In this document: one piece after another, positions 36,845 through 62,126 of the stretch
Layout of the letters: every line of letters begins with the position of its first letter
Position numbering within the stretch: the stretch's first letter is position 1
The notes under the pieces: model-generated
Databases searched by the model: none
Told to the model about the DNA's origin: nothing
The model's input: the letters and a program-made list of their open reading frames with translations, nothing else
Virus record (IMG/VR): IMGVR_UViG_3300029258_004576
DNA from: a virus
Reading direction: 5' to 3' (one strand)
DNA: 64,000 nt
Position numbers and translations under genes: made by a program

Positions 36845-37039
36845 TTAAACTCTTGGAGGATTTGGAGGACTGAACTCTTTGGAAAAACGCTTGGCTATCC
36901 GCTTCTTTTTCTTTCTCAACATGTCAACCACACCAGACAACGTTGCTGGAAACCGCTTACGAACTACCGCAAAAGGTTTTACAATAGGTGGCACAGCCGC
37001 ACTCGTCGTGATTTCATCAAACCGCTCATGATCTTCCAT
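36845..37039 (-). CDS. Small basic peptide
   Basis: 64 aa with GAGGTG RBS; FDE-ITTSAAVP start and Lys/Arg-rich tail. Confidence 0.5.
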   Translation of the reverse strand: MEDHERFDEITTSAAVPPIVKPFAVVRKRFPATLSGVVDMLRKKKKRIAKRFSKEFSPPNPPRV

Positions 37040-44366: not shown

Positions 44367-44831
44367 CTAAATCAGCTTGAACATCTCACGCCGAATTTTC
44401 GACGCTTCTGCCCTGATTCCATATCGTTTGATTCTCGATGTCTGCCGTTGCCAAACATGCTCGTTCCTCGGCATGTACAACTTCTTCACCCACTTTTTGC
44501 CAAGCTTCACAGCTTCCCTCGGAGTTAAATCTGGATTGGCATGCATCAAAGACACTAAGATCATCGACAAAATCCAGTCGTCCATGTTGTCAAATTCCGT
44601 GATAACCTTCTTATCTTCACCTGGCAGAGCTGGGACTGGTTGTTCTGTGCCATCGTCACGCCCCTTCATCGCCCCGTCAACGCCCGAATACCCTCTCCCT
44701 TTGTACCCGGACTTGTCAGCCCTCTTCGGCCTACGTGGGCCTTCCTGGCGACCCCTGATTACGGGTTTCTTCCTCTCCGTAAACACAGACCCAAGCATAT
44801 CCAAAGCTTTTTCGCGTTTTTCCATTACCAC
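44367..44831 (-). CDS. Hypothetical basic protein
   Basis: 154 aa with RBS; VFTE-R and ITE-F candidate cleavage sites. Confidence 0.55.
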   Translation of the reverse strand: MVMEKREKALDMLGSVFTERKKPVIRGRQEGPRRPKRADKSGYKGRGYSGVDGAMKGRDDGTEQPVPALPGEDKKVITEFDNMDDWILSMILVSLMHANPDLTPREAVKLGKKWVKKLYMPRNEHVWQRQTSRIKRYGIRAEASKIRREMFKLI

Positions 44832-45295
44832 AATCCTTCAGGTGGCCCCTTGGTTCGACGTGTTACATCAAATTTGACCAAAGAATTTTCCGTAGAGTCA
44901 CTAATGTAACCCTCCTCCTTGTGAGCTTCCGTTACGTCGTAATACTGGTCCGTCCATACCTTTATGATGTCTCCAGGTCGCAAAATACGAAGATCTCTGC
45001 TCGCCAGATCTGCTCGTGCTATGGAAATCTCAGACAACCTGTCTACCCGGAAACCTTCCTCCCCTGTCAACGAAGACCGATCTGGAGCCTTGAAAAACAC
45101 AGGACATTCTATTCCCTCTACCCCCTGTGCATTCTTCTTATAAACCGTAGTAATCTCCTCATCCCACAGCACATCTCTCGTGCTCTCCATTGACTCAAAC
45201 TGATAGATGACCGCAGTAGTGCCCGCCAACTTGTTGACTTCTTGAGCCACACTATCAAACAGGCACTTGTCGCAATCACCTATCAAAGTTCCCAT
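44825..45295 (-). CDS. Head completion / neck protein (T4 gp14-like)
   Basis: EVNKLAGTTAVIY...LWDEE, GEEGF, LRPGDII...YYDV pattern. Confidence 0.65.
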   Translation of the reverse strand: MGTLIGDCDKCLFDSVAQEVNKLAGTTAVIYQFESMESTRDVLWDEEITTVYKKNAQGVEGIECPVFFKAPDRSSLTGEEGFRVDRLSEISIARADLASRDLRILRPGDIIKVWTDQYYDVTEAHKEEGYISDSTENSLVKFDVTRRTKGPPEGLW

Positions 45296-45304
45296 GTCGG
45301 CTCC

Positions 45305-45802
45305 CTACCCCAACTTCCTTGCCGGACGTTTTGTTTTTGTCGAAATACGCGTGATCTTCGTTACATAATGATCAGCAACATATTTCGACAACCAATCCCT
45401 CGCAACCTTCTTCACCTCGCGCACCGTCTTGGCATAAGCACTAAACATGTTTTTCTGTGAATTCTGACGATCAAAAACTACCAACGATATTGGACTTCCC
45501 TTTGGCGCAAAAGCACTACCAAAGTGAGAATAAAAATTGATGAAAATATCTTGTTCTTTTCCATCACGATGAACTAACCGGATAACACTCCACTGCTCGC
45601 CAGCATTTTTTCCTTTGGTCCAAGTTAAAATTTTTGAAACAGCTGATTTTACATCAGATATATGGTGTGTTTTCCTATCTCTGTAATCTTGACGTCTGGA
45701 ATGAAACGTACGCCCAACAGCTTTGGACAACAGCGGTATATCAATATCCATCGATTTTCCAGCTTCGGATAAATACTCGCGTTTCCTCAAGTTAACCATC
45801 AC
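45305..45802 (-). CDS. Putative internal head cargo protein with LRxRxYLxE leader
   Basis: Starts MVNLRKREYLSE-A. Confidence 0.7.
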   Translation of the reverse strand: MMVNLRKREYLSEAGKSMDIDIPLLSKAVGRTFHSRRQDYRDRKTHHISDVKSAVSKILTWTKGKNAGEQWSVIRLVHRDGKEQDIFINFYSHFGSAFAPKGSPISLVVFDRQNSQKNMFSAYAKTVREVKKVARDWLSKYVADHYVTKITRISTKTKRPARKLG

Positions 45803-45822
45803 ACCTCCCTTATCAACAACGA

Positions 45823-46101
45823 CTAATACGCCCTGTATTTCATAATCAAATCTACAATTTTCCCAGAAAAAGCTTCGGTATTCATGAGTCTTTCAATATT
45901 AGCCAAAACCAAACTACTCGTGCTCATATTTACATTGTTGGCCAATAATGCTCTACGCATTCCACCTCTCGCAGCAACAAGAAGCATATTAGCAACAGCT
46001 TCAACACGATCCTCTGTATCAGCATCCGGAGATAAATTAACTTGATACTGTTTGATCCCGCCAGATTCTTCCAGTTTATTTCCCCAAATCGATTTACTCA
46101 T
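45823..46101 (-). CDS. Small orphan in the cargo cluster
   Basis: MSKSIWGNKLEE-S: L-x-E within the first 12 residues. Confidence 0.55.
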   Translation of the reverse strand: MSKSIWGNKLEESGGIKQYQVNLSPDADTEDRVEAVANMLLVAARGGMRRALLANNVNMSTSSLVLANIERLMNTEAFSGKIVDLIMKYRAY

Positions 46102-46109
46102 AGTATCTC

Positions 46110-46616
46110 CTAACCGGCTCCCATAGCCTTGTTTTTGAGCTGCTGCTGACGTTGTGCCTGTCTCTTCTGGATGCCCATAATGTAATTGTAAGCCTTCTCC
46201 TTCTTTTTGAGAACACTGTTAGGCTCACTTGTATGCTTCCTGTTTCGCTTCTTGCCCTTGCCGGTCAAGCTGAAACCACCACTGGGCTGACCTTGAGCAT
46301 ACTTGTGCTTCTTCAACATATACTGAGCAATCAACTGACCGCCCTTTGCAGCACCACGAAAACTCGACCCATCCTTCCTCAATTTTTGAAAAATAGCCCT
46401 GACTGCATGTTTGTAAAACACACTCTGCTTGGAAGGACGAGGTGTATGAGCGGCCACCGTCTGACGTCTGTTACGCTGTGCCTTCTGGTAAGGAGTCAAC
46501 TTCGACTTTCGCGCTTCTTCCAGATACTCCACCTCAACCAGCTCGTTCGTCAAGAACTCCAACATGGCCAGCGATTCAGTAAGCGAAAATCTCATCCCAC
46601 TACTACCTCCGATCAT
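46110..46616 (-). CDS. Basic orphan with acidic propeptide
   Basis: VEVEYLEE-ARKSK followed by a highly basic domain; similar to 55015..55440 (KH.Y/F...T.KGK). Confidence 0.65.
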   Translation of the reverse strand: MIGGSSGMRFSLTESLAMLEFLTNELVEVEYLEEARKSKLTPYQKAQRNRRQTVAAHTPRPSKQSVFYKHAVRAIFQKLRKDGSSFRGAAKGGQLIAQYMLKKHKYAQGQPSGGFSLTGKGKKRNRKHTSEPNSVLKKKEKAYNYIMGIQKRQAQRQQQLKNKAMGAG

Positions 46617-47355
46617 TCAACTCACGCATGACCCATTTGGTTATAAGCCTGTCACCCGCCGTGGCACCAAACAGCTTTTCTACTTTGTCGTTTTTCCCAT
46701 CTTTGCCAATTATAATCTGGACATGCTCTCGTGTAGCGCCAGTTCTAGAATTAGGCTTAACCTTGTGATCCATTTTTATAACAAAAGGACCCACCCCTTT
46801 CATCTCTCCAGCCATCTCGATACTACCGTCTTTTTTCAAAACCTTGGACAATACCGAATACACCTTCTTAGCCATCCGACCCTCGATGTAGTCAAACATC
46901 TCCTTCGCATACTTCCAACGATCCGCTCCCCACTCCATCTCGTGCTTCCATGTAGACATGTTCAACTCGAACAAACTCTTCTCCCCAAAAGAAACATCAT
47001 CAATATCACTCCCTGTTTCCACCACATATCCACGATCACGCAAGGAGACACTCTCAGCAACCGTATGAGCATCGTAACCATACCAATGCCCAACTATCCA
47101 AGGATCTACCTTTATACGTACATCCCAACCCTTGTTTATCTCACGCCGTTGTCTGGGTGTAAGATCGTTCAGGAACTGAGTAGCAGGTCCACCCTCTTGG
47201 AAAAACACATTCAAATCACTGCCACCACCATTCTCCCTGCGTACATCAGAAAATGCCTTTGCATATTTCTTACTCACTGGAGAAGCGATAATATTTCCCA
47301 TGGCATCTGTTTTGATGTCGACATTGATTTTCCTTGGCATCCTCATCGGCTTCAC
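46603..47355 (-). CDS. Two-module cargo protein with an internal leader motif
   Basis: Internal VAE-SVSLRDRGYVVE-T at 47017..47043 separates two segments. Confidence 0.65.
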   Translation of the reverse strand: MKPMRMPRKINVDIKTDAMGNIIASPVSKKYAKAFSDVRRENGGGSDLNVFFQEGGPATQFLNDLTPRQRREINKGWDVRIKVDPWIVGHWYGYDAHTVAESVSLRDRGYVVETGSDIDDVSFGEKSLFELNMSTWKHEMEWGADRWKYAKEMFDYIEGRMAKKVYSVLSKVLKKDGSIEMAGEMKGVGPFVIKMDHKVKPNSRTGATREHVQIIIGKDGKNDKVEKLFGATAGDRLITKWVMRELNDRR

Positions 47356-47363
47356 CTCTCCCT

Positions 47364-47969
47364 CTAGTAATACTTATTAGATCTTTCGTTCTTACCTTTG
47401 GGAGTTACTGAAGTAGCCCCAGCTTTGTTCATCTTCATGTATCCCCTTTTAACCAAATTCAAGATCTCATCCTTTGTAACTCGATGACGCTCGAAAAGTT
47501 CCTTCTTGTAGAAAGACTTGTAACAAGCCATCGCAAGGATCTCCCTCTCTCGCTCTGTGACGTCATTCCCACCTGGCAACAAAGGAGCTAACGAATCAGG
47601 ATGAACGTAGATAGATGCAAACACCCCCCTGCCACCTACCTCCCCTGTGATGATTGCACCATTGGCAGCAATTCTCACAGGCTTACGCTGGTGATCTACC
47701 GGCTTTTTCTCAAACGGATTCGGCCCTCCCCATGAACCATACTGAATATCCGACATCTGACCCGTTTTTAGATTTACAGCCATCGCAAACCCACGACTTC
47801 CTTCGAACGATGGTGGACCAATAGTCGTCTCTGTTGCAGAGTAAACACGCACATCTCTTCGTCTGTAGCCAACTTTTTTCAACGCCTTCTGCAAGGCACT
47901 GGGCAACTCATTGAGCCCAACATGAATCTCCTTCGATTCTGTGATGTATCCTCGATGCCTGAGTGTCAT
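47364..47969 (-). CDS. Putative internal head cargo protein; C-terminal winged-helix-like region
   Basis: Starts MTLRHRGYITE-S after an AGGAGG RBS. Confidence 0.7.
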   Translation of the reverse strand: MTLRHRGYITESKEIHVGLNELPSALQKALKKVGYRRRDVRVYSATETTIGPPSFEGSRGFAMAVNLKTGQMSDIQYGSWGGPNPFEKKPVDHQRKPVRIAANGAIITGEVGGRGVFASIYVHPDSLAPLLPGGNDVTEREREILAMACYKSFYKKELFERHRVTKDEILNLVKRGYMKMNKAGATSVTPKGKNERSNKYY

Positions 47970-47978
47970 AATTGCCTC

Positions 47979-48416
47979 CTATATCTTACTGATTCTCGTT
48001 GGTTTAAATTTTATAGCTTTCTTGAGCAACCACTTTTTAGCAACTGCCTTCGCCTGTCTCTCAGTGTGAAATATACCAAGGTCTTCACCAGAATTTGGAA
48101 CACCAGGGTTGTAAACATCTATTACAAAATTTGGCTTATTGGCAACAGGCTCAATATCCTTCTCTCTGATCTGAAGAATATAATCCACACTATTATAATC
48201 CCGTGGGCCTTTTCGGCCCTCTCGCTCCCAATGAATAGCCGCTGTCAAATTAAAAAAAGCATCTCCGTAAGAACTCCACACCAATGCCTTTGATATGGCC
48301 CTCTCTACGTCTGATACCCAAGCTCCTTTTGTCTTCCTGGCCACTCCAGAATCAAAACTGCCAACAATTATCGGCTTCCCGCCCTCGACCAAGTAACCAC
48401 GTTTCCTGAGTCTCAT
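47979..48416 (-). CDS. Putative internal head cargo protein
   Basis: Starts MRLRKRGYLVE-G. Confidence 0.7.
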   Translation of the reverse strand: MRLRKRGYLVEGGKPIIVGSFDSGVARKTKGAWVSDVERAISKALVWSSYGDAFFNLTAAIHWEREGRKGPRDYNSVDYILQIREKDIEPVANKPNFVIDVYNPGVPNSGEDLGIFHTERQAKAVAKKWLLKKAIKFKPTRISKI

Positions 48417-48431
48417 GTGACCTCTTTTTAA

Positions 48432-51400
48432 TCAGAGCCTGATATACAACCCCGTCTCTTTTTCAAACATATCCTTGAGCATGTCAGCATACACCATGGT
48501 GTATCTCTTCAACTTCTTGAAACCCTTTTTGCCAACTCGACCAAACTGCACATCGTACAAGTCCATGGAAGTGAGAGTAATTTTTACGTAGTTCGGTTTA
48601 CTCCTCAACCTGTTGGGGAATTGAAAAACCAAAGACTTTCCATTGTCGTCAGAGTAAATATGCTTCGCACCGATCATCATTCTCAAACGATTACCACCAC
48701 CCAACTGTTGCAAGATGATGTCAGCCGGAGCCTCTGTCAGATACTCACGCTGTCGAAACCTGGACCCATCCGACTCTTCCATTTCTGCATCACAAGAATC
48801 CCCTAACAAACTGTCTCGAAGCTTTTTAATCACATTCACTTCTTTCAGCTCGACGTCTTCATGTTTCTCATACTTCTCTATCCATTTATATTTTGACTTT
48901 TTATATTTTGTCCCTGCAATATATTGCATCTCCCCATTCCGACGATGATCCCTCACTCGATAATAAACCTTTCCATCCAAACCATCACTGGTTCCAACAT
49001 ACTCATACTTCCCGCTCTCAAGCCCAGTTTTTAACTCTTTATCAGAAACAGGAGAAATCGATTCCTCCAGCTCAACGTCTTCTATATCCTCGGAAAAAAC
49101 AGCCTTAGCACCAACCATCTTGGCAACCTTCTTAGCTGTCTCTTTTGTAAAATTCCAATAAACAGGATGATGCATAACGTTGCTACCTTTTTTAGATAAC
49201 TCACCAGTCATAATATCAATAGCACGTCCACCTACCAGAAACCGTACAGGAATCCCGTTTTTAACAGTTTCTTTTCGCAACTCAACAACCTGACTTGAAG
49301 TAAGTTTCCCCTCATCCAACTCGACGCTTTCTTCACGTTTTGCCAGGTTAGCCTGATCCCAACCTCGAAGCCATACTGACAACAGAGCTTTGGCTCCAGC
49401 ACCAGGCTTCATACCCTTGATCATCCCCATCAAGGTTTTGTCTCTCGCTGGTATCCTTTTCTTACCACTTAAAAAAGCAGCTTTGCCCAGACCTAAAATT
49501 TCTCTTTCGTTATCACTTAATTTAATCTCATCCAGCTCGACGTCTTCATAAGCATGGGCCTTGGCATATGCCAGAAGCTCTTTTTTGATCATGCCCTTAA
49601 CCACTTTTTCAGCACCTGAAGGAGCATTGTCGGATTTCATATTGAAAGCTACGACATCATGAACAGTGTCATAAATAACTTTGCCAGTAGCCAGTTGCTC
49701 TTTGGTTTTCAAACTGTCAACTTTCACATCGTAAGTCACTGTCTTGAACATCTGTCTGCCCACAGTCCCCGTGACCACTATATCCTTGGCACTGCCTGTC
49801 CCTTTTATTTTGAACTTCTTTGGGAAAACAGGACGTTCTATGCCACCCTCGTGCATCTCGATGTCTTCAGTTGATTTAAACACTTTCGGCAACCTTCCTT
49901 TGTTGTCTTGAATAACCTTTTTCACCTTTTTGAAATAATTCCCAAAATGCTTGACGATCTGATCGGGAGTACCCTTCTTTTTCCTCCAACCAAACTTCAC
50001 ACTACCAAAAGCATAGTGCGATCCAGGATCGGGCTTCACCATCAGCTTGCCCCCCGTCGCAATATTTGCCTCCAATTTATCAGCCAATGTGTCGTCTTCG
50101 TTTACCCCGTAAATTATAATCTTATGTAACGCAGGATCGTTCATCATGATCCCGTTCGACCATTTGCTTTTGTCTTTCTCTAATGCCGTAACAAGGTAGA
50201 TATGCTTACGACCCAAACTTGATCTCACCTCACACACCAACACATACCCAGGCGGCATACTCTTTTCAATCTCTGTCTTGATTCGCTTGGCCAGCTTCTG
50301 CGCTTCTCCAGATGGATTACTTGACTTCGAATGACCCAGTATGTTGTACACACCAGCCTCATCTAGCTCGACATCTTCATCAGCTTTTTCACCAACCGGG
50401 ATACCAAGAGGTCCCTTGCCTCTTCCACGAGCGAGCCCTTTACCTTTGCCCTTTGACTTTGTTTTCTTTCCAGGGGTATCACAACCCTCGCTCTTGTCGT
50501 CCAGCTCGATGTTATCGCCAGCTTGGCCACCTAGTAATTCATTCCGCATCTCTCGTATCAAACTGGACGTCCCCATGCCTGTCTCCTTTTTGTCAACATC
50601 CTCCAGATACTTACCTGTTTTCAGTTTACTGATAATAGTATTCGCTTTGTTCGCAGTCATGCTGCCTCGGACACTCCGCAAAGTATTCAATCTCTCTTTG
50701 TACTCCGCTTCATTTTCAGAACGTATCAACATCATAACAAGACCATCGGACTGCCCAAAGGTGATCAGCGATGCCAACATCTTTGGTCCCAACTTGTCTA
50801 TCCAAGGAATTTGCTTCAACAAGTTTACAAGCTGTGGACGACTCATACCAATGTGCTCATGCCCCAAAGGTTTCCCCTCATCCAGCTCGACGTCTTCTCT
50901 CAACTTCTTTGCTTTTGCCAATGCTGATTTCAAAACTGGCAACGCATAATGAGCAGTAGCACCTATCTCATTAAGCCTGTTCATTGCGTGACCACCACAC
51001 TTTTCACATGTCACCCAAGTTCCCTGACCAAAACCACCTGCCTCTGCTTTCCATCCTTGGATAGACTTACAATGACAAGGTTTTTGTTTCCCCTCATCCA
51101 GCTCGACGTCTTCTCTCAGTTTTTTAATAGCTGCATCAATCGCACTCTGCTTATCTGTGCCAAGAGAAATAATCTTCAGCTTTTTCCAACTACCCGATTC
51201 GCTGTCTTTCTCGTCCCTTACATTCTCCTTGTCATAGTCCCCAAACACAACTTCCCAAGGAGACGTCTTGGATGCCTTGCCAGCCAGCACGTAATACCTT
51301 TTGCCTTCGGTGATCTCCACATCCTCATCAAAGCCCATGAGAGCCTTGACATCCTTCTCCACAGCCTTTTTCGTACGACCGAATGTCGTCTCCCATGTCC

Positions 51401-51614
51401 CATCTTTTCTGTACACCTTGGCCATCCACGGCCCTCTTCCGGGGAGATCTGTCTTCTCTATTTCGTACTTCACGTACCGCTTTTTCGCCTCGTCCAACTC
51501 GACATCTTCTGTCGCAGTTTTGTTAGGATCAACCCCCTCGGTAAGTGCCTGCATATCTTTGCCCAAAATGACATCGCGCATTTGTGATAATTCAGTGGAC
51601 TGCATCAACCTCAT
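48432..51614 (-). CDS. Putative protease-processed polyprotein of internal head proteins (~11 modules)
   Basis: Ten EDVE[LIM]xE-type linkers ending at residues 42, 103, 174, 246, 419, 589, 696, 768, 851 and 925, plus FRQREYLTE at 961. Confidence 0.75.
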   Translation of the reverse strand: MRLMQSTELSQMRDVILGKDMQALTEGVDPNKTATEDVELDEAKKRYVKYEIEKTDLPGRGPWMAKVYRKDGTWETTFGRTKKAVEKDVKALMGFDEDVEITEGKRYYVLAGKASKTSPWEVVFGDYDKENVRDEKDSESGSWKKLKIISLGTDKQSAIDAAIKKLREDVELDEGKQKPCHCKSIQGWKAEAGGFGQGTWVTCEKCGGHAMNRLNEIGATAHYALPVLKSALAKAKKLREDVELDEGKPLGHEHIGMSRPQLVNLLKQIPWIDKLGPKMLASLITFGQSDGLVMMLIRSENEAEYKERLNTLRSVRGSMTANKANTIISKLKTGKYLEDVDKKETGMGTSSLIREMRNELLGGQAGDNIELDDKSEGCDTPGKKTKSKGKGKGLARGRGKGPLGIPVGEKADEDVELDEAGVYNILGHSKSSNPSGEAQKLAKRIKTEIEKSMPPGYVLVCEVRSSLGRKHIYLVTALEKDKSKWSNGIMMNDPALHKIIIYGVNEDDTLADKLEANIATGGKLMVKPDPGSHYAFGSVKFGWRKKKGTPDQIVKHFGNYFKKVKKVIQDNKGRLPKVFKSTEDIEMHEGGIERPVFPKKFKIKGTGSAKDIVVTGTVGRQMFKTVTYDVKVDSLKTKEQLATGKVIYDTVHDVVAFNMKSDNAPSGAEKVVKGMIKKELLAYAKAHAYEDVELDEIKLSDNEREILGLGKAAFLSGKKRIPARDKTLMGMIKGMKPGAGAKALLSVWLRGWDQANLAKREESVELDEGKLTSSQVVELRKETVKNGIPVRFLVGGRAIDIMTGELSKKGSNVMHHPVYWNFTKETAKKVAKMVGAKAVFSEDIEDVELEESISPVSDKELKTGLESGKYEYVGTSDGLDGKVYYRVRDHRRNGEMQYIAGTKYKKSKYKWIEKYEKHEDVELKEVNVIKKLRDSLLGDSCDAEMEESDGSRFRQREYLTEAPADIILQQLGGGNRLRMMIGAKHIYSDDNGKSLVFQFPNRLRSKPNYVKITLTSMDLYDVQFGRVGKKGFKKLKRYTMVYADMLKDMFEKETGLYIRL

Positions 51615-51660
51615 TTTTCAAATCTCCTTTGTTCGGACATCAGCACTATCCGATTGATTC

Positions 51661-52374
51661 CTATCTCTTTATGAAATACCGAACCTTGTCATTTTTTCTA
51701 GTTAACGCAAACACTCCCTTGATAGACTTCCACAGACCCTCCTCCTGATTTTCATCAGGATACCTGTGACCATTAAGTCTTTTTAAAACTTCCTCAAACA
51801 TGTTCGCTTTCTCATATCCAAATTTATCCTGAACATCTCGGTACGAACGCATACTAAATGCCTTCTTCCAATCAGCCCCGGTCAGTTTGTGATAGCCCGA
51901 ATCATAATAACCAAGTGTAAGCCAGTATCTCTCAAGAATAGACAACTCACCCTTCCCCAGTTGGCCCCACTTCAACTTAACCCAAACCTCAACAGACGGT
52001 CCAAATCTACCCTTAATAACCGACCCTAAACCACGACCACCATAAATACTAAAAGATGTTTTTTCGTAGGGAATACTAGGATTAGAAACAGCAGGTTCAG
52101 CCCGTAAGAAAATCTTCTCCGCCTTGAACGGTTTAAGACTGTTAGGATCCAGTGCATATCGTACCAAATGTTTACGAGCAACAAGTTGAGGATCAAACCA
52201 ATTACGAGGATCTGATTCATCCAACCAGCTTGTCGTTACAAGTGCTACTTTCCCATCCCAAAAAGAAAATCTAAGACCACTCGGATCTGACACCTCGGTT
52301 TTTGGCAAAAACTTAGGCAAAACCTTACCGGTTGCCTTCTCCTCGGTCAGATACCTACGTCGTCTCAAGTTCAT
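51661..52374 (-). CDS. Putative internal head cargo protein
   Basis: Starts MNLRRRRYLTE-E. Confidence 0.7.
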   Translation of the reverse strand: MNLRRRRYLTEEKATGKVLPKFLPKTEVSDPSGLRFSFWDGKVALVTTSWLDESDPRNWFDPQLVARKHLVRYALDPNSLKPFKAEKIFLRAEPAVSNPSIPYEKTSFSIYGGRGLGSVIKGRFGPSVEVWVKLKWGQLGKGELSILERYWLTLGYYDSGYHKLTGADWKKAFSMRSYRDVQDKFGYEKANMFEEVLKRLNGHRYPDENQEEGLWKSIKGVFALTRKNDKVRYFIKR

Positions 52375-52790
52375 TTTTCCGATCTCCTTTTCATCTCAGC
52401 CTTCAATGGATAGAAAAACTTTCGCAACCATTTGAGCACCGTCTTGTCAACGTTCGCCAACGTCACTTTCCACGACTGCCCATCTGTATAGCCATCTCGG
52501 CTCCACAGATTCGTCTTGACAACCACCTCTCCACCACCCTGTCCCCAAACTTCCATCTCCCAGTCAAACATCTGCCTACCAGAACTCGGCCAAGATCCAG
52601 TCAACGTCCACCCGTTCGGCCTCTTATCCTGGCTGACAAGAGACCGCTCAAACTCTGGAGTAGAATGGAAAAACTTCTCCAGCACGAGCCCCACCCTGTC
52701 ATGCTTACCTCGGCCATCTTTGCCAGGGGTGATAAAAGATCTCCTGGCCTCTCGAAGTACGCAAATAGAACTGGTGAGTGAAAACGTCAC
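52371..52790 (-). CDS. Orphan in the cargo cluster
   Basis: VLRE-A near the N-terminus; GTG start 1 nt after the upstream stop. Confidence 0.55.
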   Translation of the reverse strand: MTFSLTSSICVLREARRSFITPGKDGRGKHDRVGLVLEKFFHSTPEFERSLVSQDKRPNGWTLTGSWPSSGRQMFDWEMEVWGQGGGEVVVKTNLWSRDGYTDGQSWKVTLANVDKTVLKWLRKFFYPLKAEMKRRSEK

Positions 52791-52791
52791 T

Positions 52792-53910
52792 TTACATTCT
52801 GCTCGACAATTCTTTCACCATCTTACCAATGGCAAGCTTTGGACTTGCACTACCCGTAATCGACTCTCGTACCACAATCTCCCCTTTTGCATTTGGAACT
52901 CTCATTTTGAGAACAAAACGAATCTCATCACCATAATGATCCACATGAAATTGCCACGATATTGACAAGTCAGACGAGTTTGTTCCTTCCCCTACTACAA
53001 GAACATGACCATGCCCCATATAGTTTTTCCCAAGCACATCAGCATATGCCTTCTTGGGTATCAACCTGATAAACTCTTCCGCAATGCTCTTATTATAAGG
53101 CGCAATCGCCTTCTCCAACAAAGAACCCTTTGCCCCACCGCCTCCATGCGTCGTCCAGGATTTTCCCTCTTCAAAATACCTACGCTGTCTCAATTTACTC
53201 ATGTCAACTTCTTCTTTCTTAAGCTTCCCCCTCCACGCTTGAGATGGCTTCGTCATGAAATACTGTTTCAATATAATGTCCGCCATATCTCGGCCACTTA
53301 CCCTCAGCAATATGGCGTAAAACCACAACGGAGCATTCTCTGGAATCCGACGAATACCCTTCGCTAAACGAGGTTCTACTTTGCCAACATTTCGAAGCCA
53401 CATCTGAAATGCTTTTTTGGGATTCTTGGCTATTACGTCCTGTGCATCAGCCATGTTGTCCTTGCCCCAAATTATCGGCAACTTATCCCTCGGAATTTTA
53501 TTAATAATCTCCCTCTGACTCTTGAATAAAAATTGCTCAGGATTTTCTATACCTGTCTCCTGCTTGAACCAGTTCAAAATATTGGAGCTTATCTTGAAAG
53601 CTCCAGGTCGAGACGTCCTATCCTCGCCACCCATCGCCAAGCCAGCTGCTACCTTCTGACGCTCGCCCAAGTATTCTCTTCTTCTCAGCTTACTCATTCC
53701 AAATCCCTCGCTTTCTGGTAATTTTGGAACCTTGGCCATGGAGTAGGGTAACTTCGATCTCATGGGCTTACGAGGTTTGATTTTTTTTCGCTGCATCAAC
53801 CGGCTGACCTTCAATCTTTTCTTCGTCAAAGGATCCATTCCAAACGAATCAACATCGTTGTCATCACCAGCTAACTGCTCTACCAACTCAACTATCGATT
53901 CGTCGATCAT
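52792..53910 (-). CDS. Three-module cargo protein with two internal leaders
   Basis: Internal MSKLRRREYLGE-R (ATG 53697) and MSKLRQRRYFEE-G (ATG 53202). Confidence 0.7.
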   Translation of the reverse strand: MIDESIVELVEQLAGDDNDVDSFGMDPLTKKRLKVSRLMQRKKIKPRKPMRSKLPYSMAKVPKLPESEGFGMSKLRRREYLGERQKVAAGLAMGGEDRTSRPGAFKISSNILNWFKQETGIENPEQFLFKSQREIINKIPRDKLPIIWGKDNMADAQDVIAKNPKKAFQMWLRNVGKVEPRLAKGIRRIPENAPLWFYAILLRVSGRDMADIILKQYFMTKPSQAWRGKLKKEEVDMSKLRQRRYFEEGKSWTTHGGGGAKGSLLEKAIAPYNKSIAEEFIRLIPKKAYADVLGKNYMGHGHVLVVGEGTNSSDLSISWQFHVDHYGDEIRFVLKMRVPNAKGEIVVRESITGSASPKLAIGKMVKELSSRM

Positions 53911-53913
53911 GAC

Positions 53914-54561
53914 TCAATCCATCGCACAAAAATAGTGAGTATCGATACCCGCTTTTCGCAACGCTCCACTGACTTCAGAAAACGTCATGCGCTCCAATTT
54001 CCTTCGATTCTTCCTTGCCCACTCATGAAATTTCTTGATCGCTGTAACCTTTCCTCGGGTTGGAGCAATAAGAGTCGGCTCATTATTCCTGTCAACATTA
54101 TCTCTTACCGAAAAATGATCACTGTCCGCATTCACACTGATATACGGAGTGTTGATAACGATAGGTTTAAACCCAGGAGCGGCCACCCTGACGCCTTTGT
54201 ACTGATGTTTCTCTATCTTTGGTGACCCGAGCACCCCCAGCCTGTCCGCCTCGCTCACGATGCCCTCAGCCATCTTCAGAGCCATCTTGTAACTCTTGGC
54301 TCGGTGAACCACTTTGGCAAACTGCTCTATCAACCTCAGAATCTTCGAATCCCTTACGTAATCAATGTCATACAAGGCAAATTCATCAACCATTTTCCCC
54401 CGCTTGCCAGCGTTGGCAAGATCGGTCACACGAATCGACCCACCAAATCGATGAATACGAAAACGATCTGTCTCGATTGTTTGACCTATCGCCAACCCTT
54501 CTTCAATTGAAAACAATCCGACAACAGAACCCAAATACTCGTTAATTTCAGACAGCCTCAT
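53914..54561 (-). CDS. Orphan, paralog of 54582..54998
   Basis: Start MRLSEINEYLG chosen from the AGGAGAGG RBS; SIEE-G precedes the domain. Confidence 0.65.
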   Translation of the reverse strand: MRLSEINEYLGSVVGLFSIEEGLAIGQTIETDRFRIHRFGGSIRVTDLANAGKRGKMVDEFALYDIDYVRDSKILRLIEQFAKVVHRAKSYKMALKMAEGIVSEADRLGVLGSPKIEKHQYKGVRVAAPGFKPIVINTPYISVNADSDHFSVRDNVDRNNEPTLIAPTRGKVTAIKKFHEWARKNRRKLERMTFSEVSGALRKAGIDTHYFCAMD

Positions 54562-54581
54562 ATCACCTCTCCTGACTCTTT

Positions 54582-54998
54582 TTATTTCGCCTTGGGATTC
54601 TTGAACTTTGTTATCCTCAGTTTCAAAGGCTCTACCCAACCATCAGGATCCCCACCCTCTCTCTTGCGAGCTATCTTCTCAGTTGTCGACACAAGCCCCT
54701 TGGCCATACTCAACACATCGCGATAACTACTCGACTTCTTTGCACGAGAAAGAAATTTGTCTAGATGTTTACTGATCTCTGGATCGTCAGCATATGACAA
54801 ATTGTAAACCAGAAATCTTCCCACCGTTTCTCCTGGTTGTTTGTTAGATATATCCGTCACAAGAAAGTCATCCTTGTACATGTTGATTCTCACAGCAGGC
54901 GTCTCATACTGCCGATGACCTCCAAGAACCATCCTGCCAGGAAGCATCATTCTCTCAGCAATGTGTCCCAAATATTCATTGACTTCACAAAGTTTCAT
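54582..54998 (-). CDS. Orphan, paralog of 53914..54561
   Basis: Start MKLCEVNEYLG chosen from the GAGGAG RBS; HIAE-R precedes the domain. Confidence 0.65.
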   Translation of the reverse strand: MKLCEVNEYLGHIAERMMLPGRMVLGGHRQYETPAVRINMYKDDFLVTDISNKQPGETVGRFLVYNLSYADDPEISKHLDKFLSRAKKSSSYRDVLSMAKGLVSTTEKIARKREGGDPDGWVEPLKLRITKFKNPKAK

Positions 54999-55014
54999 AA
55001 CCCGAACTCCTCTT

Positions 55015-55440
55015 TTATCCCCTGGCCTTTGCCAGCATTCGCTCGTAATCACTGACCTTGTCGCTATGCCCCTTCTGAGCAGCCTTCGACTTGCCAGACG
55101 TCTTGCCTTTTTTCGTAGGCACTTGTGATTTCAATCGAAGAAAACCGTGCTTCTGAAGTTGAGCAGTACACACAGCAAAACCCTTGGAAAGTGCTGCCCT
55201 CACTTTGCCCTGATCAGACGAATCCCCCTTGAGTTCCCGCTTCACCACAGCACGTACACACCTCTTTAGTTGAGGTGGCGTCTGCTTGCGTTCCTCAAAA
55301 ATATCTGACAGCCGCACAAACCCTTTATTGTCGTTATACAAACGCCCCATTCGATGCATCGCCGGATTCAAACGTCTCCCCTTAGTTTTAATCAACGTTG
55401 GATATGGATGCATCCACAATTGCCATTCTTCTAAACGCAT
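55015..55440 (-). CDS. Basic orphan (CV...CTAQLQKHG)
   Basis: IFEE-RKQ precedes a basic domain similar to 46110..46616; start uncertain. Confidence 0.6.
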   Translation of the reverse strand: MRLEEWQLWMHPYPTLIKTKGRRLNPAMHRMGRLYNDNKGFVRLSDIFEERKQTPPQLKRCVRAVVKRELKGDSSDQGKVRAALSKGFAVCTAQLQKHGFLRLKSQVPTKKGKTSGKSKAAQKGHSDKVSDYERMLAKARG

Positions 55441-55470
55441 ATCATCCCTCTTGATCGGTTGTTCTCACTA

Positions 55471-55713
55471 TCAATACCCTCGAACCTTCTGCCAAAAAGT
55501 CTCCTTGGTATCGATGGAATTAGACACCTTGAGAATATCTTCTCCAAACTTTTTCAACATCCTCTTAAGCTCTACCTTTTTGTCGGGAGCATTTATCAAT
55601 TTAGGTACCAATTTCTTGACCCTCTTCAACAACACATCCGCAGAATATTCAACGCCCATCACCGTGATAGCCTCTGACAATTCTGTGTAACTTCGTCTTC
55701 TTAAATCCTTCAT
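55471..55713 (-). CDS. Small cargo-like protein with variant leader
   Basis: Starts MKDLRRRSYTELSE-A. Confidence 0.65.
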   Translation of the reverse strand: MKDLRRRSYTELSEAITVMGVEYSADVLLKRVKKLVPKLINAPDKKVELKRMLKKFGEDILKVSNSIDTKETFWQKVRGY

Positions 55714-55721
55714 ATTCTCCC

Positions 55722-56486
55722 CTACGAAACCAACGGCAACACAGGTCCTTGAAAGTCGAGAATCTTCTCTTCCAACTTCTCTTTGTCGTCTCTGGATTCC
55801 TGGATTAACGCCTCGCCATCCAACGTCCTATCCCCACCAGCAGATGGTAATCCACTAGTATACTTCCCCCTGATTCGGCCCAATGTATACTTGGCTTCTG
55901 CCAACGCCCACTCTCTAATCAACCATAGATGTCGAGGATCGTAATGCTCCAATTTGATGTCCTTGGGATCTACTCGATACAAATACACCGCTGTACCAGC
56001 CTCCCTCGGAGGTGGCATCACCCTAAGTAATCGAATATCTGGCTCTGCCAAGTTGTCGTAATAAAACTCCCAATCACACTCAGCCGATAAATACCTCGCA
56101 TCTGACTCCAGCGTTTGAAGCGTCTGCACTATCGTCGTCTGTGGATATTGAGATCCCCACATCATGCCACCACCATAAGGAATTCCCTGTATGTCCAAAA
56201 AACCAGGATACAAAACACCAAAATCAATCCCAGCCACCCGACTGGGAAACCACACCTTCACCACCTTGTCTATCCCCGGCGTAACAGCCGACAAATCATA
56301 CTCGGTTTGATCAGCAATCAGTGTAAGCGTTGCCTCTTTGTGAAGACCGACGAAAGCGTTGTACCACTCCTTTGCATCGTCCATACATTGTGATAGTTGA
56401 CGATCCGTTAATTCAACCTTGACACCACAATCGTCATCCTGTCCCAGCTTTCTCCGTGCCCATACTCGAAATTCCTGAATCTTCAT
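55722..56486 (-). CDS. gp13: Neck / head-tail adaptor (T4 gp13-like)
   Basis: RRKLG...VKVELTDRQLSQCMDDA and EWALAEAKYTLGRIRGKY...LPSAGG...LDGEALIQES. Confidence 0.85.
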   Translation of the reverse strand: MKIQEFRVWARRKLGQDDDCGVKVELTDRQLSQCMDDAKEWYNAFVGLHKEATLTLIADQTEYDLSAVTPGIDKVVKVWFPSRVAGIDFGVLYPGFLDIQGIPYGGGMMWGSQYPQTTIVQTLQTLESDARYLSAECDWEFYYDNLAEPDIRLLRVMPPPREAGTAVYLYRVDPKDIKLEHYDPRHLWLIREWALAEAKYTLGRIRGKYTSGLPSAGGDRTLDGEALIQESRDDKEKLEEKILDFQGPVLPLVS

Positions 56487-57115
56487 CTCAAGTAGCCCCT
56501 CTGTCTCAAGTGACCAAAAGACTCTTGCCTTTCTACATCACCACCTGGCTCCATACCCACATCAGGCGCAAGGGCTGGCACCACAGCCTTCTTTTTCTTC
56601 TGCTTATGCTTGGGTATCACCTTGTTCTTCAGAGCGCAGTGTGTGCACAGTGCGCCATCGATACACGGCTCCTTCGAACCATCTATGACCTTCCCACACT
56701 GGTCACACTTACATTGACCAACTGGGTTTTTCTCCTTGGGAACAACAACCTTGTCCTTCTCTTTAAAATTGTCACTCTTCGGAGCAGACACCTTCTCTTT
56801 CGGAACAGACTCCTTCTCTTTCGGAGCAACCTTTTTCTTCTTTTGCGCTTCATCACCTGACGACTTGGTAGCCTCCAACTTGGCCAGCTCTTTACGCACA
56901 GAAGGACGTCTCAACCTGTTTTTCAGCTCCCTCGCTGCCGCTACAAGTTGTTCGAGATCTCGGCTCTCACACGCAAGGGAAATCTTGGAAACAGCCGTAC
57001 CGAAACTACTCCACCTCTCCTCCTCTATCTTCACCCTGCGATCATTCTCCACCAACTGATCTCGCATATCCTTGAGTATCTTGACACTGCCTCCCAAATC
57101 TCCCAGCCGTGGCAT
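56483..57115 (-). CDS. Hypothetical protein, Lys-rich, with a Cys4 zinc ribbon
   Basis: CDQC...CTHC; ends HLRQRGYLR-stop. Confidence 0.6.
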   Translation of the reverse strand: MPRLGDLGGSVKILKDMRDQLVENDRRVKIEEERWSSFGTAVSKISLACESRDLEQLVAAARELKNRLRRPSVRKELAKLEATKSSGDEAQKKKKVAPKEKESVPKEKVSAPKSDNFKEKDKVVVPKEKNPVGQCKCDQCGKVIDGSKEPCIDGALCTHCALKNKVIPKHKQKKKKAVVPALAPDVGMEPGGDVERQESFGHLRQRGYLR

Positions 57116-59030: not shown

Positions 59031-60524
59031 CTATGGCAAGTTGGTTACCGTGATGATACCGAAGAACTTGTTGTTCACAAGCTTCTTCGCATACCTCGTC
59101 CTCATGCCCTTACGAATCGTGAAGTCTGCTGGGTCGAGGAAAGCAGCCGTCATCTCCAGTGGCACGTACGGCGCATATACCAGACCCGAATCGGTGAAGA
59201 GTGATCCCTTCAATCCAACCAGGATTTTCCCAGACGGGAAGTAAGGATCGATGATCACAGTCCACTTGTTCTGCAAGTAGCCCATGGGATACACACCGTA
59301 CCCAGTTGGAGCCTGCGGGAGAGCAAATGCTTGACGTCCTGTCACGCCCTTACCCTGCGGGATATTTGGAAGCTGGTCAAACACCCTCACGAGGTCGCCA
59401 TGGGTTGCCAACGCACCAAAGATGGGTTGGACACTGGGTCCAATAACCAGGAAGTTTCCTGGCCCTCTGTGGGTCGCTGTGTTGATGCCTCCGGAAACCT
59501 TCTCGATCACGGTCATGATGTTGCGGAAATGATCCGCCTGATTGCGACCAGGGGGTACCGCTGCATCGAAGGTGTCGGTGTTGGTAGTCCCAGAAGCATA
59601 CGCCCGGTTGATCAGCTCGCGATCAATCCCCAGCGCGATCTCAGACGCCACTCCTTGGGTCAGCTCGGGCTCAATATCCATATTGAGCACTGCCCGCATG
59701 TCGTCAGCAGCTTCACTACTCCACATCACCTTGAGCTTACGGCTGTAAGCTTTGATGGCTTCCAGTTGGATGTCGATGTTGACTTGAGGTACGTTCGCAG
59801 CCACTCCCTCCATCGAGTAGTAGTAGTTGGCGATCACGGTGGTTACATCCTCGTCAAAGGTGATGTCATAAACACCAGTTGCCAAAGTGATCGTCGAAGG
59901 TGCCCCGATGTCACCAGCCAACGTGCCAGAACCGTCTGCGTCGTAGATCCTCTTCTCAGATCCATCGCTCACAGCTGTCGCCAGGAATTCTATCCCTACC
60001 TGACCCAGACCGTACGCCTTGACCGCGCTCCAATCCGTGGTGCCAGTGAAGTTGTCCCCAGGGCCAGCACCAATCGTCTCAGCTGCGACGTACTCCGAGG
60101 AGTAGTTCGGATCGAAGTTGTCGATCATGTCGTCGCCAGCGGTGATGGTACCCTTGGTGGTGCCATACTTGTAATCCCAATAGAAGATACCTCCAATGGG
60201 AGAATTCATCGGCTGAATCGAGAACAGACCGTTTGCAATCAAGTTCGACCACACCTTGCGGATGACGGGGAATACAAACTTGACGAGATCGGGGATGTTC
60301 GAAGCGAGTGTGCTCTCAGAGAGATACTTCTGCTTCAACGTCCCCAGATGATTCATCTGGTTCTCGTACAAACACGCCATGCATCGACGGGTCCAGCTGT
60401 CGTCAATCTCCTCCAACATTCCAGCCCATTTGGCCTGGAGCGCCACGTTGACATCTTCGTCCAGGATCGTTCCCACGCTGTTCTCTTTTGCATCGCTGTT
60501 CAAAAAATCTCTTGCTTCATTCAT
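59031..60524 (-). CDS. gp23: Major capsid protein (T4 gp23 family)
   Basis: FPVIRKV...SIQPMNSPIGGIFYWDY, SRKLKVMWSSEAADD, EIALGIDRE, GLVYAPYVPL...KGMRTRY; predicted propeptide ends YLSE70. Confidence 0.97.
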   Translation of the reverse strand: MNEARDFLNSDAKENSVGTILDEDVNVALQAKWAGMLEEIDDSWTRRCMACLYENQMNHLGTLKQKYLSESTLASNIPDLVKFVFPVIRKVWSNLIANGLFSIQPMNSPIGGIFYWDYKYGTTKGTITAGDDMIDNFDPNYSSEYVAAETIGAGPGDNFTGTTDWSAVKAYGLGQVGIEFLATAVSDGSEKRIYDADGSGTLAGDIGAPSTITLATGVYDITFDEDVTTVIANYYYSMEGVAANVPQVNIDIQLEAIKAYSRKLKVMWSSEAADDMRAVLNMDIEPELTQGVASEIALGIDRELINRAYASGTTNTDTFDAAVPPGRNQADHFRNIMTVIEKVSGGINTATHRGPGNFLVIGPSVQPIFGALATHGDLVRVFDQLPNIPQGKGVTGRQAFALPQAPTGYGVYPMGYLQNKWTVIIDPYFPSGKILVGLKGSLFTDSGLVYAPYVPLEMTAAFLDPADFTIRKGMRTRYAKKLVNNKFFGIITVTNLP

Positions 60525-60581: not shown

Positions 60582-62126
60582 TTAATTCCCAGTTTTCCTC
60601 TCAGCAGAAATTCCTGACCGTTTCTGCAACTCCGACATCGGAACGCCCATGACCGTGACGTCTTCTTCTATCGACACCCTTAGATCATCGTCACTATCCA
60701 AATGCCTTGGCCTGCTACTGATTATCTGACTTCGAATTTCCTCGAACTCTCTCGATGGAGGGTTGTCAGCCTTGAACGATTCGACCAGCTTGTCCACACC
60801 CTCTTTGTTGCTCGGTTGCACCGAATCAATGTGCTCGCGCAACCTCGAAGCCTGTGGACTACCTGATATTTTCCGCTCAATGTAAGCCCGAATACCAAAT
60901 TGCTTGCTAATGGCCAAAGCTTTATCTCGTTGTTCCGTAACGAGATTAACCTTCTTCTCCAACTGAGCAATCCTGTCTTCAAACTCCTCTTTGACATCGT
61001 CTCCCTCGGCAAGAGCAGTAGATATTTCTTCTACCCTGCCTGCAAGATCGTCAAGTGTCTCAAAGTCTGTGACATCACCCAACATCTCGATAATCTGATC
61101 AGCTCGCTCATTGTCCCTAAGCTCTCGCTCCAGGTGCAGATGATAGCCAAATTCCTTGGCAATAACAGACAGCTCCTCAGCTTCCTGCCTTACCTCAGCT
61201 ATCTCCTCGTCCTGCTCGGCAATCTTGCGCTCTAATTCCTGATTGTGAGCCTTGAGTTTTGTCACTTCGTGATTCGTGTCTTCCGACAAAATGAAGGGAG
61301 TCACGATCCTCTTGATCTCCTCCAAGGCAAGGGATGAGCCTGCCACTTCGGGATCCTCTAGCAATTGGCCACGAGCCACTTCAACAGCTTCCTCCCGGAT
61401 GGATTCTCCCTCTGACCGAAGCCGTTCTTCAAATTCCTCGCGCAATGCCTCCCGCGCATGGGTCCGTGCATCTGACTCAATCTCTTTCGTCAGTTCCTCT
61501 ACCAGCTCGGGGTGTTCTTCTTTTAATTTTCCCAGATCCATCATCTCTGTATTCTCCTTATGCTCCACCACAAAATCAGGGTGGGCACCAGCGTTTGCCG
61601 GATCAGCTACGATGTCCCAGGTGACCAACTTGTAGTCCTCCTGGACGACATCATTCCCTTTGTTGTCAGTAGCCGTTGTTCCAAAACCTCGACTACTCAC
61701 ACCCAATTTGCCACCTGCTTTCGCAATCGCAAGGGCCTGATCTCCGTTGACGGTGCCAGGGATGAACTCAATCACACCTTTTATTTCACCGTCCTCTGCG
61801 ATAGCCGCCTCGGTCACAAAATGACTCACACGAGCAAGTTTTGTCTTCCCGTCTCCGGGATGATCCAACTCACCAAACACCTTGCGACCTTGCATATCCT
61901 CACTCAAACGATTGATTTCTCTCACCATGAGTTTACGAGGATAAAGACGTTTATTCGCTGTAGCCTGATCCGTTAGCCCTAACCTGCCCTTGAGGTATGG
62001 ACGCTTGCCTTCGCCTTCACCTTCATGCAAATCTTCGGGTGAAAACTCCAACACAACAACGTCTTCAAGGAGATCCTTCCCCTCGGGGATTTCAACTTCT
62101 TGGATCTGGAGTACTTTTCTCTTCAT
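60582..62126 (-). CDS. gp21: Prohead maturation protease (T4 gp21 family) fused to a C-terminal scaffold
   Basis: N.RLYP, GELDHP (His), GVSSRGFG (Ser), WDIVADPA (Asp), then ~320 aa of acidic coiled coil. Confidence 0.92.
   Translation of the reverse strand: MKRKVLQIQEVEIPEGKDLLEDVVVLEFSPEDLHEGEGEGKRPYLKGRLGLTDQATANKRLYPRKLMVREINRLSEDMQGRKVFGELDHPGDGKTKLARVSHFVTEAAIAEDGEIKGVIEFIPGTVNGDQALAIAKAGGKLGVSSRGFGTTATDNKGNDVVQEDYKLVTWDIVADPANAGAHPDFVVEHKENTEMMDLGKLKEEHPELVEELTKEIESDARTHAREALREEFEERLRSEGESIREEAVEVARGQLLEDPEVAGSSLALEEIKRIVTPFILSEDTNHEVTKLKAHNQELERKIAEQDEEIAEVRQEAEELSVIAKEFGYHLHLERELRDNERADQIIEMLGDVTDFETLDDLAGRVEEISTALAEGDDVKEEFEDRIAQLEKKVNLVTEQRDKALAISKQFGIRAYIERKISGSPQASRLREHIDSVQPSNKEGVDKLVESFKADNPPSREFEEIRSQIISSRPRHLDSDDDLRVSIEEDVTVMGVPMSELQKRSGISAERKTGN

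Follow-up and report, generated by a model that had tools for sequence, protein, structure and literature searches.

A candidate capsid-targeting leader shared by mostly unrelated proteins in a clade of uncultured T4-like phages

The virus record IMGVR_UViG_3300029258_004576, of which we analysed a stretch of 64,000 nucleotides (64 kb; hereafter the window), comes from an uncultured T4-like phage that, together with its relatives, carries an 11-residue tag, M-x-L-R-x-R-x-Y-[LIVF]-x-E, on dozens of mostly unrelated proteins. We consider this leader likely to be a two-part capsid-targeting propeptide of one uncultured clade of T4-like myoviruses. That the tagged proteins are docked to the prohead, packaged and cleaved is what we infer from their genes; for their subsequent injection into the host we judge the chances to be evenly balanced.

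Results

A six-frame regular-expression scan of the window with [LF]R.R.Y[LIVF].E returned exactly the eight full matches that had been listed in the original prediction, a reading of the DNA letters that proposed a candidate capsid-targeting leader on the genes of a 10-kb island (45305..55713). All eight lie in coding frames of the minus strand, on which all genes of the window are encoded (GC skew is uniformly negative), and the scan found none elsewhere in the window. As had been claimed, four of them stand close behind a gene start, here one or two residues past the Met: LRKREYLSE (45764..45790; MVN-L) on the 165-aa gene 45305..45802, LRHRGYITE (47937..47963; MT-L) on the 201-aa gene 47364..47969, LRKRGYLVE (48384..48410; MR-L) on the 145-aa gene 47979..48416, and LRRRRYLTE (52342..52368; MN-L) on the 237-aa gene 51661..52374. 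Two more follow an internal Met-Ser-Lys, also as claimed, and both belong to the 372-aa open reading frame (ORF) 52792..53910, where MSK-LRRREYLGE (53662..53688) heads cassette 1 and MSK-LRQRRYFEE (53167..53193) heads cassette 2. The other two are internal and have no Met before them at all: LRDRGYVVE (47017..47043; VS-L) at residue 105 of the 250-aa ORF 46603..47355, and FRQREYLTE (48732..48758; SR-F) at residues 953-961 of the 1060-aa polyprotein 48432..51614. The variant LRRRSY-TELSE that had been noticed at the start of the 80-aa gene 55471..55713 is present as well, at 55672..55704, with two extra residues before L-S-E.

The window corresponds to positions 36106-100105 of a 142,254-bp virus record, read on the reverse strand. 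This whole genome holds 11 full matches, every one in a coding frame of the coding strand, with none in the other reading frames. About 0.01 matches would be expected from amino-acid composition, and 2000 residue shuffles of the proteome gave 0.0145. Three of the 11 copies lie outside the window (genome 22006, 22341 and 102556), so the expectation that the motif would be enriched only in head-cargo loci goes too far. Seven copies in this genome stand 0-2 residues past a plausible start Met that has a ribosome-binding site, and for three others the Met in front is in frame within a longer ORF (both M-S-K copies of the 372-aa ORF and the M-S copy at genome 102550). A further Met-less internal copy is found in a relative (L023; SS-L); because such copies cannot be start sites, they must act after translation. 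The homologue of the 237-aa protein in L023 is itself placed behind an internal leader. A Tat (or Sec) signal could be ruled out, since polar or charged residues follow the motif in all copies and none has a hydrophobic h-region.

Relatives were sought with a codon-fixed DNA pattern of the motif and then by alignment of the proteins from the two genes that border the island, a head-tail adaptor/neck protein (55722..56486) upstream and a conserved 156-aa protein (44825..45295) downstream. The codon-fixed pattern gave 21 matches, of which two were relatives and the rest chance. Four related viral contigs were found, with adaptor and flank proteins 54-71% identical to those of the window; a scan of metagenomes returned mostly the same contigs plus four short fragments, and among short metagenome fragments the adaptor/flank identity reaches up to 75%. 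In each of the four relatives the motif occurs between the same two border genes. Scans of their whole records gave 8, 7, 6 and 1 motif matches (22), all on the coding strand, and 0 matches to a control pattern.

Pooled from the five phage records, 33 non-redundant copies define the consensus M-[NSKT]-L-R-[RK]-R-[GST]-Y-L-x-E-[GAS]. A Met lies at most four residues upstream in 28 of the 33; motif position 7 is occupied by Leu (26 copies), Ile (4), Val (2) or Phe (1), and the Glu at position 9 is invariant. Relaxing the invariant positions to admit K, F or W yielded no further coding-strand copies in these records. Outside the clade, megablast of the island detected no near relative among cultured phages, the major capsid protein is at most about 32% identical to that of any phage record, and a search with the adaptor protein led only to a distant T4-like contig without the island.

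The bodies behind the leader mostly differ among the islands of the window and the four relatives, and the leader is constant. The comparison of gene content between the border genes that had been proposed as a check showed a gene set that differs and a leader that stays. An all-against-all BLASTP of ~30 bodies from the five records joined few pairs and left ~24 families. In this sense the island genes are unrelated, as originally stated, but the description goes too far in two respects: the proteins of 45305..45802 and 47979..48416 are weak paralogues (26% identity), and about one third of the island is a conserved core.

From copy to copy the leader is spelled in different ways. For Leu the codons are TTG, CTC, CTG or TTA, for Arg AGA, AGG, CGA, CGT or CGC, for Tyr TAT or TAC, and for Glu GAA or GAG. 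Because the codons vary synonymously, conservation is at the protein level, and what selection maintains is the peptide and no DNA or RNA element; the differing codons, together with the location of the copies inside ORFs, rule out a DNA-level repeat or regulatory element. The same observation bears on the idea that the shared N-terminus is a functionless relic of common descent, or of recombination at the gene start that carried the ribosome-binding site and the first codons along. This idea can draw on the two paralogous cargo genes of the window and on one relative whose three tandem leaders share upstream DNA around the ribosome-binding site. It would have to account, however, for invariant residues amid synonymous codon variation, for Met-less copies inside ORFs and a copy at a C-terminus (see below), for conservation across phages with flanking proteins only 54-75% identical, and for the presence of the leader on ~24 families unrelated by BLASTP, and we regard it as very improbable. 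The three tandem leader genes just mentioned lie at L033 5320-5365, 5690-5737 and 6030-6079 (L011 743-1502) and share the pattern GGCCAAGGAG.AA.CAA.ATGAC, which suggests local duplication or recombination at gene starts.

In five protein families the Glu of the leader appears, from alignments of homologues, to mark a processing or domain boundary; homology starts within a few residues after the Glu in four of them and at the Glu itself in the fifth, cassette 1. Immediately past FRQREYLTE, the final 99 residues of the 1060-aa ORF belong to phrog_9437 (E = 2.5e-23), a domain that exists as a free-standing protein of ~100 residues in phiM12, KVP40 and many other phages; in the alignment the phiM12 and KVP40 proteins have their start Met no more than a few residues from the predicted cut. 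Cassette 1 of the 372-aa ORF and L033:3820-4527, a protein that starts MGIIVE, share 58% identity. The match begins at the Glu (MSKLRRREYLGE/RQK versus MGIIVE/RQK) and runs to the next in-frame leader, past which the window and L033 carry different cassettes, a swap at the leader junction.

The other families show one body behind different leaders. Homologues of a 149-aa protein (genome 22335-22784) from other metagenomic phages begin with M[ST]LR.R.YL.E, MNVGAAILAE or MKSFKQHITE, or have no leader, and all of the leaders are in register at the Glu. MKSFKQHITE matches the T4 capsid targeting sequence (CTS), MKTYQEFIAE, at positions 1, 2, 4, 8 and 10 (T4 sequence: PMC8442874), and it has an aromatic position 4 and an I-x-E end, features on which targeting and processing depend in T4 (PMC9026906). 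The 92-aa gene 45823..46101 carries a different leader, MSKSIWGNKLEE, and its homologue in L023 begins MNSLRNRGYLEE, with similarity starting after the Glu. A small, very basic protein of 64 aa, encoded by an unlisted ORF after the tail-tube genes (36845..37039), begins MEDHERFDE/ITTSAAVPP; in two relatives the same protein begins MSLRKRSYLGE/MTTSG and MGLRKRAYLAE/ITTSG, again a leader swap. Hydrophobic-x-Glu is kept in every alternative leader of the five families compared. The small basic protein is kept even in distant relatives (L030 19054-19230 and L035 19707-19910), and its N-terminal extension is lineage-specific.

A hydrophobic-x-Glu end is the type of site that is cut by T4-type prohead proteases, and such a protease is encoded in the T4-type head module upstream of the island. 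The gene 60582..62126 specifies a prohead protease of the Peptidase_S77/T4 gp21 family (residues ~32-195; PF03420, 45.9 bits versus a cut-off of 27) fused to a coiled-coil, scaffold-like tail. When the protein is aligned to the T4 gp21 structure 5JBL, the catalytic His (in GELDHP) and Ser (in GVSSRG) are kept, at positions where the crystallised protein has Ala. The protease-scaffold gene is 920 aa long in L023 (3314-6076) versus 514-527 aa in the window and L025; the extra part could be an intein or an added domain. The same head module encodes the gp23-family major capsid protein (59031..60524), which has a predicted maturation site, LKQKYLSE(70)/S (60315..60338), that is conserved in the relatives as basic-x-basic-(Y/F/A)-L-x-E. 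Its position at residue 70 is comparable to that in T4 gp23, from which a 65-residue propeptide is removed (PMC9026906). A further predicted propeptide is found on the conserved basic 168-aa protein 46110..46616, an island protein with an N-terminal extension of ~34 residues (27 from a second Met, MRFSL) that ends YLEE; in its relatives the extension ends YLVE, LLDE or VLSE, and conservation starts after the Glu.

These sites raise the question of whether the motif might be nothing but a longer stretch that the prohead protease recognises and cuts, with no part in targeting; the proteins would then reach the head by other means, or would be cut in the cytoplasm late in infection, as a form of timed activation, and never be packaged. 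The end of the motif, Y-L-x-E, is indeed that of the predicted capsid-protein maturation site, the internal copies behave like linkers between cassettes, and some tagged genes lie outside structural modules. The other predicted sites of this protease nevertheless look different. The 1060-aa ORF contains ten acidic EDVELDE-type linkers spaced ~60-170 residues apart, and PHROG families of small free-standing proteins match single segments of it; a 427-aa ORF of a relative (L033 6858-8141) has two identical linkers of this type around different domains. All that the EDVELDE linkers, the capsid-protein site and the alternative leaders have in common with the LRxRxY leader is hydrophobic-x-E. Since the linkers, MGIIVE and MEDHERFDE need no more than this, cleavage does not explain the invariant L, R, R and Y. 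Moreover, proteases of the T4 family are activated inside the assembled prohead (PMC9026906), which speaks against cutting in the cytoplasm.

A second line of evidence against a pure cleavage signal comes from a protein on which the motif could hardly be cut. A 210-aa zinc-ribbon protein (56483..57115), encoded just before the adaptor, carries the core LRQRGY (56492..56509) at its extreme C-terminus (LRQRGYLR-stop). The C-terminal LRxRxY is kept in L023, L033, L034, L025, L044, L046 and L048, where the ends read LRRRSYSL, LRSRGYLRER, LRRRGYIQG, LRRRSY, LRRRKYLK, LRRRKYKG and similar. A Glu at the cleavable position is present in only one of the seven relatives (LRSRGYLRER) and is absent from the protein of the window, leaving six relatives in which the motif persists without a scissile Glu. 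Retention of LRxRxY where it cannot be cut implies another role, for which binding is the simplest reading; the Glu-less C-terminal copies argue for a docking role separate from cleavage. Taken together, these points make a pure cleavage signal an unlikely explanation. A comparable division is known from the T4 CTS, in which residues 4 and 7 serve targeting and residues 8 and 10 processing, and in which an Asp at position 10 blocks cutting without blocking packaging (PMC9026906). Apart from the zinc-ribbon protein, no conserved protein outside the cargo carries the core motif.

A second, unrelated class of leader, ~20 residues long and of the form M-x-[LI]-x-[KE]-[VAI]-N-x-x-L...[LIV]-x-E, stands at the start of ~15 other genes within the island and after it. 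Examples in the window are at 54561 (MRLSEINEYLG...), 54998 (MKLCEVNEYLG...), 44357 (MNLSKVNSRLSALSEE) and 58206 (MLQREIREVL...SLAE), and in the relatives at L023 17465, 17755, 18379 and 18744, L034 5672, 13146, 13648 and 14004, and L025 11888 and 12539. It occurs on the coding strand only and resembles the N-terminus of the capsid protein (M-x-EARDFL); it may be a second head-loading signal.

The position of the island was also compared across phages. The adaptor (SU10_adaptor; phrog_211, Ad2), which forms the upstream border, has matches in phage records that are annotated as neck protein. For the 156-aa protein at the downstream border no match was found in phage records, and Pfam gave Phage_attach only below threshold. 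The original prediction had placed the island between gp13-like and gp14-like genes; the first of these fits the neck/Ad2 family matches of the adaptor, whereas the label gp14-like rests on position only. In distant relatives, whose adaptors are 26-33% identical, the adaptor and flank genes are direct neighbours and both island and motif are absent, and the island is therefore a clade-specific insertion. Several island genes that lack the motif are conserved in all relatives. Members that recur in all close relatives include the EWQLWMHPYP family, the paralogous pair 53914..54639 and 54582..55052, the basic protein 46110..46616, and a protein that is split here between 52792..53910 and 52371..52790.

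A second variable cargo locus lies upstream of the head genes, at genome 22003-22784 (L038) here and at G001:C1:11441-12360 (L049) in a relative. Both precede one and the same conserved gene, immediately in the relative and by ~1.6 kb here, and they differ in content: L038 encodes a leader-tagged 106-aa protein and the leader-tagged 149-aa protein described above, and L049 a leader-tagged 233-aa protein with a HEMVH motif and a leader-tagged 73-aa protein. A scan of the genome contigs gave no clue of a prophage or of the host.

The surroundings of the tagged genes might be taken to mean that the tag addresses some other target, such as a neck, portal or tail assembly site, a chaperone, a Tyr- or Arg-modifying enzyme, or export. 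The island is flanked by neck genes, the gene of one tagged protein follows those of the tail tube, and the C-terminal copy is on a protein encoded just before the adaptor. Export by Tat or Sec is at odds with the lack of a hydrophobic stretch past the arginines, and no co-occurring enzyme was found: the only candidate, a sulfotransferase of this genome (20139-21290), has no homologue in the motif-bearing records of the relatives, which is weak evidence because those records are incomplete. The invariant Glu and the register-exact swap to a T4-CTS-like leader point instead to the head protease, and a different address strikes us as quite improbable.

Most cargo bodies match no detectable family in PHROGs or Pfam; the matches obtained were phrog_9437, phrog_19203 and phrog_21515, all on pieces of the polyprotein, and sub-threshold hints. 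An atlas search with the 201-aa cargo gave no usable lead. One body is that of the 149-aa protein, a single domain and not a polyvalent protein, which probably has an ADP-ribosyltransferase (ART) fold, a prediction based on modest scores. ART-PolyVal (PF18760) matches it below threshold (E = 0.023; 15.9 bits versus a cut-off of 31.2), and its language-model neighbours are ART-PolyVal or AcrIF11-type domains (atlas score 0.93). In its AlphaFold model leader residues 1-12 come out as disordered, with pLDDT < 50, and the body averages ~88. The best structural matches are all ART folds (Z 5-7.5; best Foldseek E 3e-3) and include a cyanophage pre-ejectosome protein, MbcT, the diphtheria-toxin catalytic domain, RES, PARPs, ParT and AcrIF11.

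Discussion

These observations fit a two-step model. The L-R-x-R-x-Y part of the leader would dock the tagged protein to the assembling prohead core, and after shell assembly the S77 protease would cut past the Glu, either near the N-terminus or between fused cassettes. The mature protein would thereby be freed inside the head, fused ORFs being split into their cassettes, and would probably leave with the DNA into the host. A tag this short and self-sufficient would allow cargo genes to be exchanged, fused and re-tagged freely, and such free exchange would in turn give rise to a variable island between the adaptor and its normal neighbour as well as to the second variable locus upstream of the head genes.

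Several points weigh against this account, in which the docking partner might be the protease-scaffold fusion, a core protein or the shell interior. The phage is an uncultured virus record. The three copies outside the island adjoin non-structural-looking genes, and in the relatives the tail module includes the gene of one leader-tagged protein. Between the capsid-protein site and the leader the likeness is confined to P4-P1, the basic residues of the former being in another register, so that the two may be recognised in different ways, and apart from the initial Met and the terminal hydrophobic-x-E the leader has no sequence similarity to MKTYQEFIAE. As to function, most cargo bodies have none that can be recognised, and the scores behind the ART assignment are weak.

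It is conceivable, though we hold this only tentatively and think it rather unlikely, that the system is more elaborate. LRxRxY would then act by itself as a docking peptide, with a single receptor in the prohead core. It would be used in three topologies, as a cleavable N-terminus, as an internal element between fused cassettes and as a permanent C-terminus, and would form with the second leader class a two-channel sorting code. Such a code, if it exists, could set which proteins are loaded, where in the head they lie and whether they are released, and cassette exchange might drive the rapid evolution of injected effectors.

The closest parallel to the proposed propeptide is provided by the T-even phages, whose diverse and fast-changing head-internal proteins have nothing in common but a conserved capsid targeting sequence (PMC3012670, PMC9026906). 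As judged from the genes, the leader is an analogue of the T4 CTS that belongs to another peptide family. Both are N-terminal leaders of about ten residues on otherwise unrelated proteins and end in hydrophobic-x-Glu; in both cases the phage encodes a gp21-family protease, upstream residues would serve targeting and the last three processing, and the set of tagged genes varies among related phages as the leader stays constant. The differences are as clear. The leader is basic where that of T4 is acidic or aromatic, with invariant L, R, R, Y and E; ~11 proteins per genome are tagged here versus three in T4; the genes form a 10-kb island between neck genes; and the motif is also used internally between cassettes and at an uncleavable C-terminus. 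The claim of a new targeting signal accordingly needs to be divided. A portable, protein-level leader, a new peptide and a swappable gene set were all found, but the principle is that of the T4 CTS and is not new. What is new is the peptide itself, basic and with invariant R, R and Y, unlike MKTYQEFIAE; the three apparent topologies and the leader swaps seen among homologues, one of which leads to a T4-like CTS; and the 10-kb insertion between neck genes together with EDVELDE-linked polyproteins.

Other packaged proteins offer partial parallels. T4 Alt, an ADP-ribosyltransferase, is carried in the head, undergoes trimming by gp21 and enters the host by injection (PMC9026906, PMC5512222), and the 149-aa cargo resembles it in its predicted ART fold and in a short N-terminal propeptide ending L-x-E. 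It is much smaller than Alt (149 versus ~680 residues), however, and on its weak scores lies nearer to the ART-PolyVal/AcrIF11-like group. The polyvalent proteins described by Iyer et al. (2017, PMC5512222) likewise join disparate small domains, are late genes and are predicted to be delivered with the DNA, and hints of ART, HExxH peptidase and ParB-like domains occur among the cargo of this clade. Here, in contrast, the modules are separated by predicted prohead-protease sites (EDVELDE-type linkers and LRxRxYLxE), and most are separate small genes, each with its own tag.

In giant phages the propeptide cleavage motif is S/A/G-x-E. The ejection-protein propeptides of phiKZ, 201phi2-1 and SPN3US are cut by a gp21-related protease (PMC5694885, PMC7411985, PMC10052503), and these phages are alike in having many head-internal proteins that are processed after Glu by a T4-related prohead protease. 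Their propeptides differ in being described, in those papers, as protease substrates and not as one short shared tag.

If the leader does target proteins to the head, one regular expression would list the proteins delivered with the DNA, ~11 per genome and a different set in each relative, and these would be prime candidates for anti-defence and host-takeover functions. The T4 CTS principle would then be no peculiarity of the T-even phages; it would have been re-invented, or have diverged beyond recognition, in distant phages of the gp23/gp21 type, and the split between a docking part and a cutting part would be clearer than in T4. The natural swaps within one family (LRxRxYLxE, MKSFKQHITE, MNVGAAILAE and no leader) are ready-made test constructs. 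A short orthogonal tag could also load foreign proteins into capsids, a use to which the T4 CTS has already been put.

Two members of the island core differ in architecture among the relatives. The protein divided between 52792..53910 and 52371..52790 is the product of a single gene in two relatives (L033 4722-5363; L025 13042-13479), with an N-terminal part marked by D-E-N-D-x-D..G-M-D and a C-terminal part by TPGK..GKHD. In the window and in L023 (12612-13562, 13906-14322) leader-tagged cassettes follow the N-terminal part in the same frame and the C-terminal part has an ORF of its own, a layout that looks as if cassettes had been inserted into the gene. The EWQLWMHPYP protein has 141 residues here (55015..55440) and ~370 in L023 (10795-11925) and L025 (10542-11645). 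In these two relatives the longer proteins gain a C-terminal domain with a DGHHR motif, in which Pfam finds nothing and which is reminiscent, by its motif, of head-packaged ParB-like nucleases (PMC5512222).

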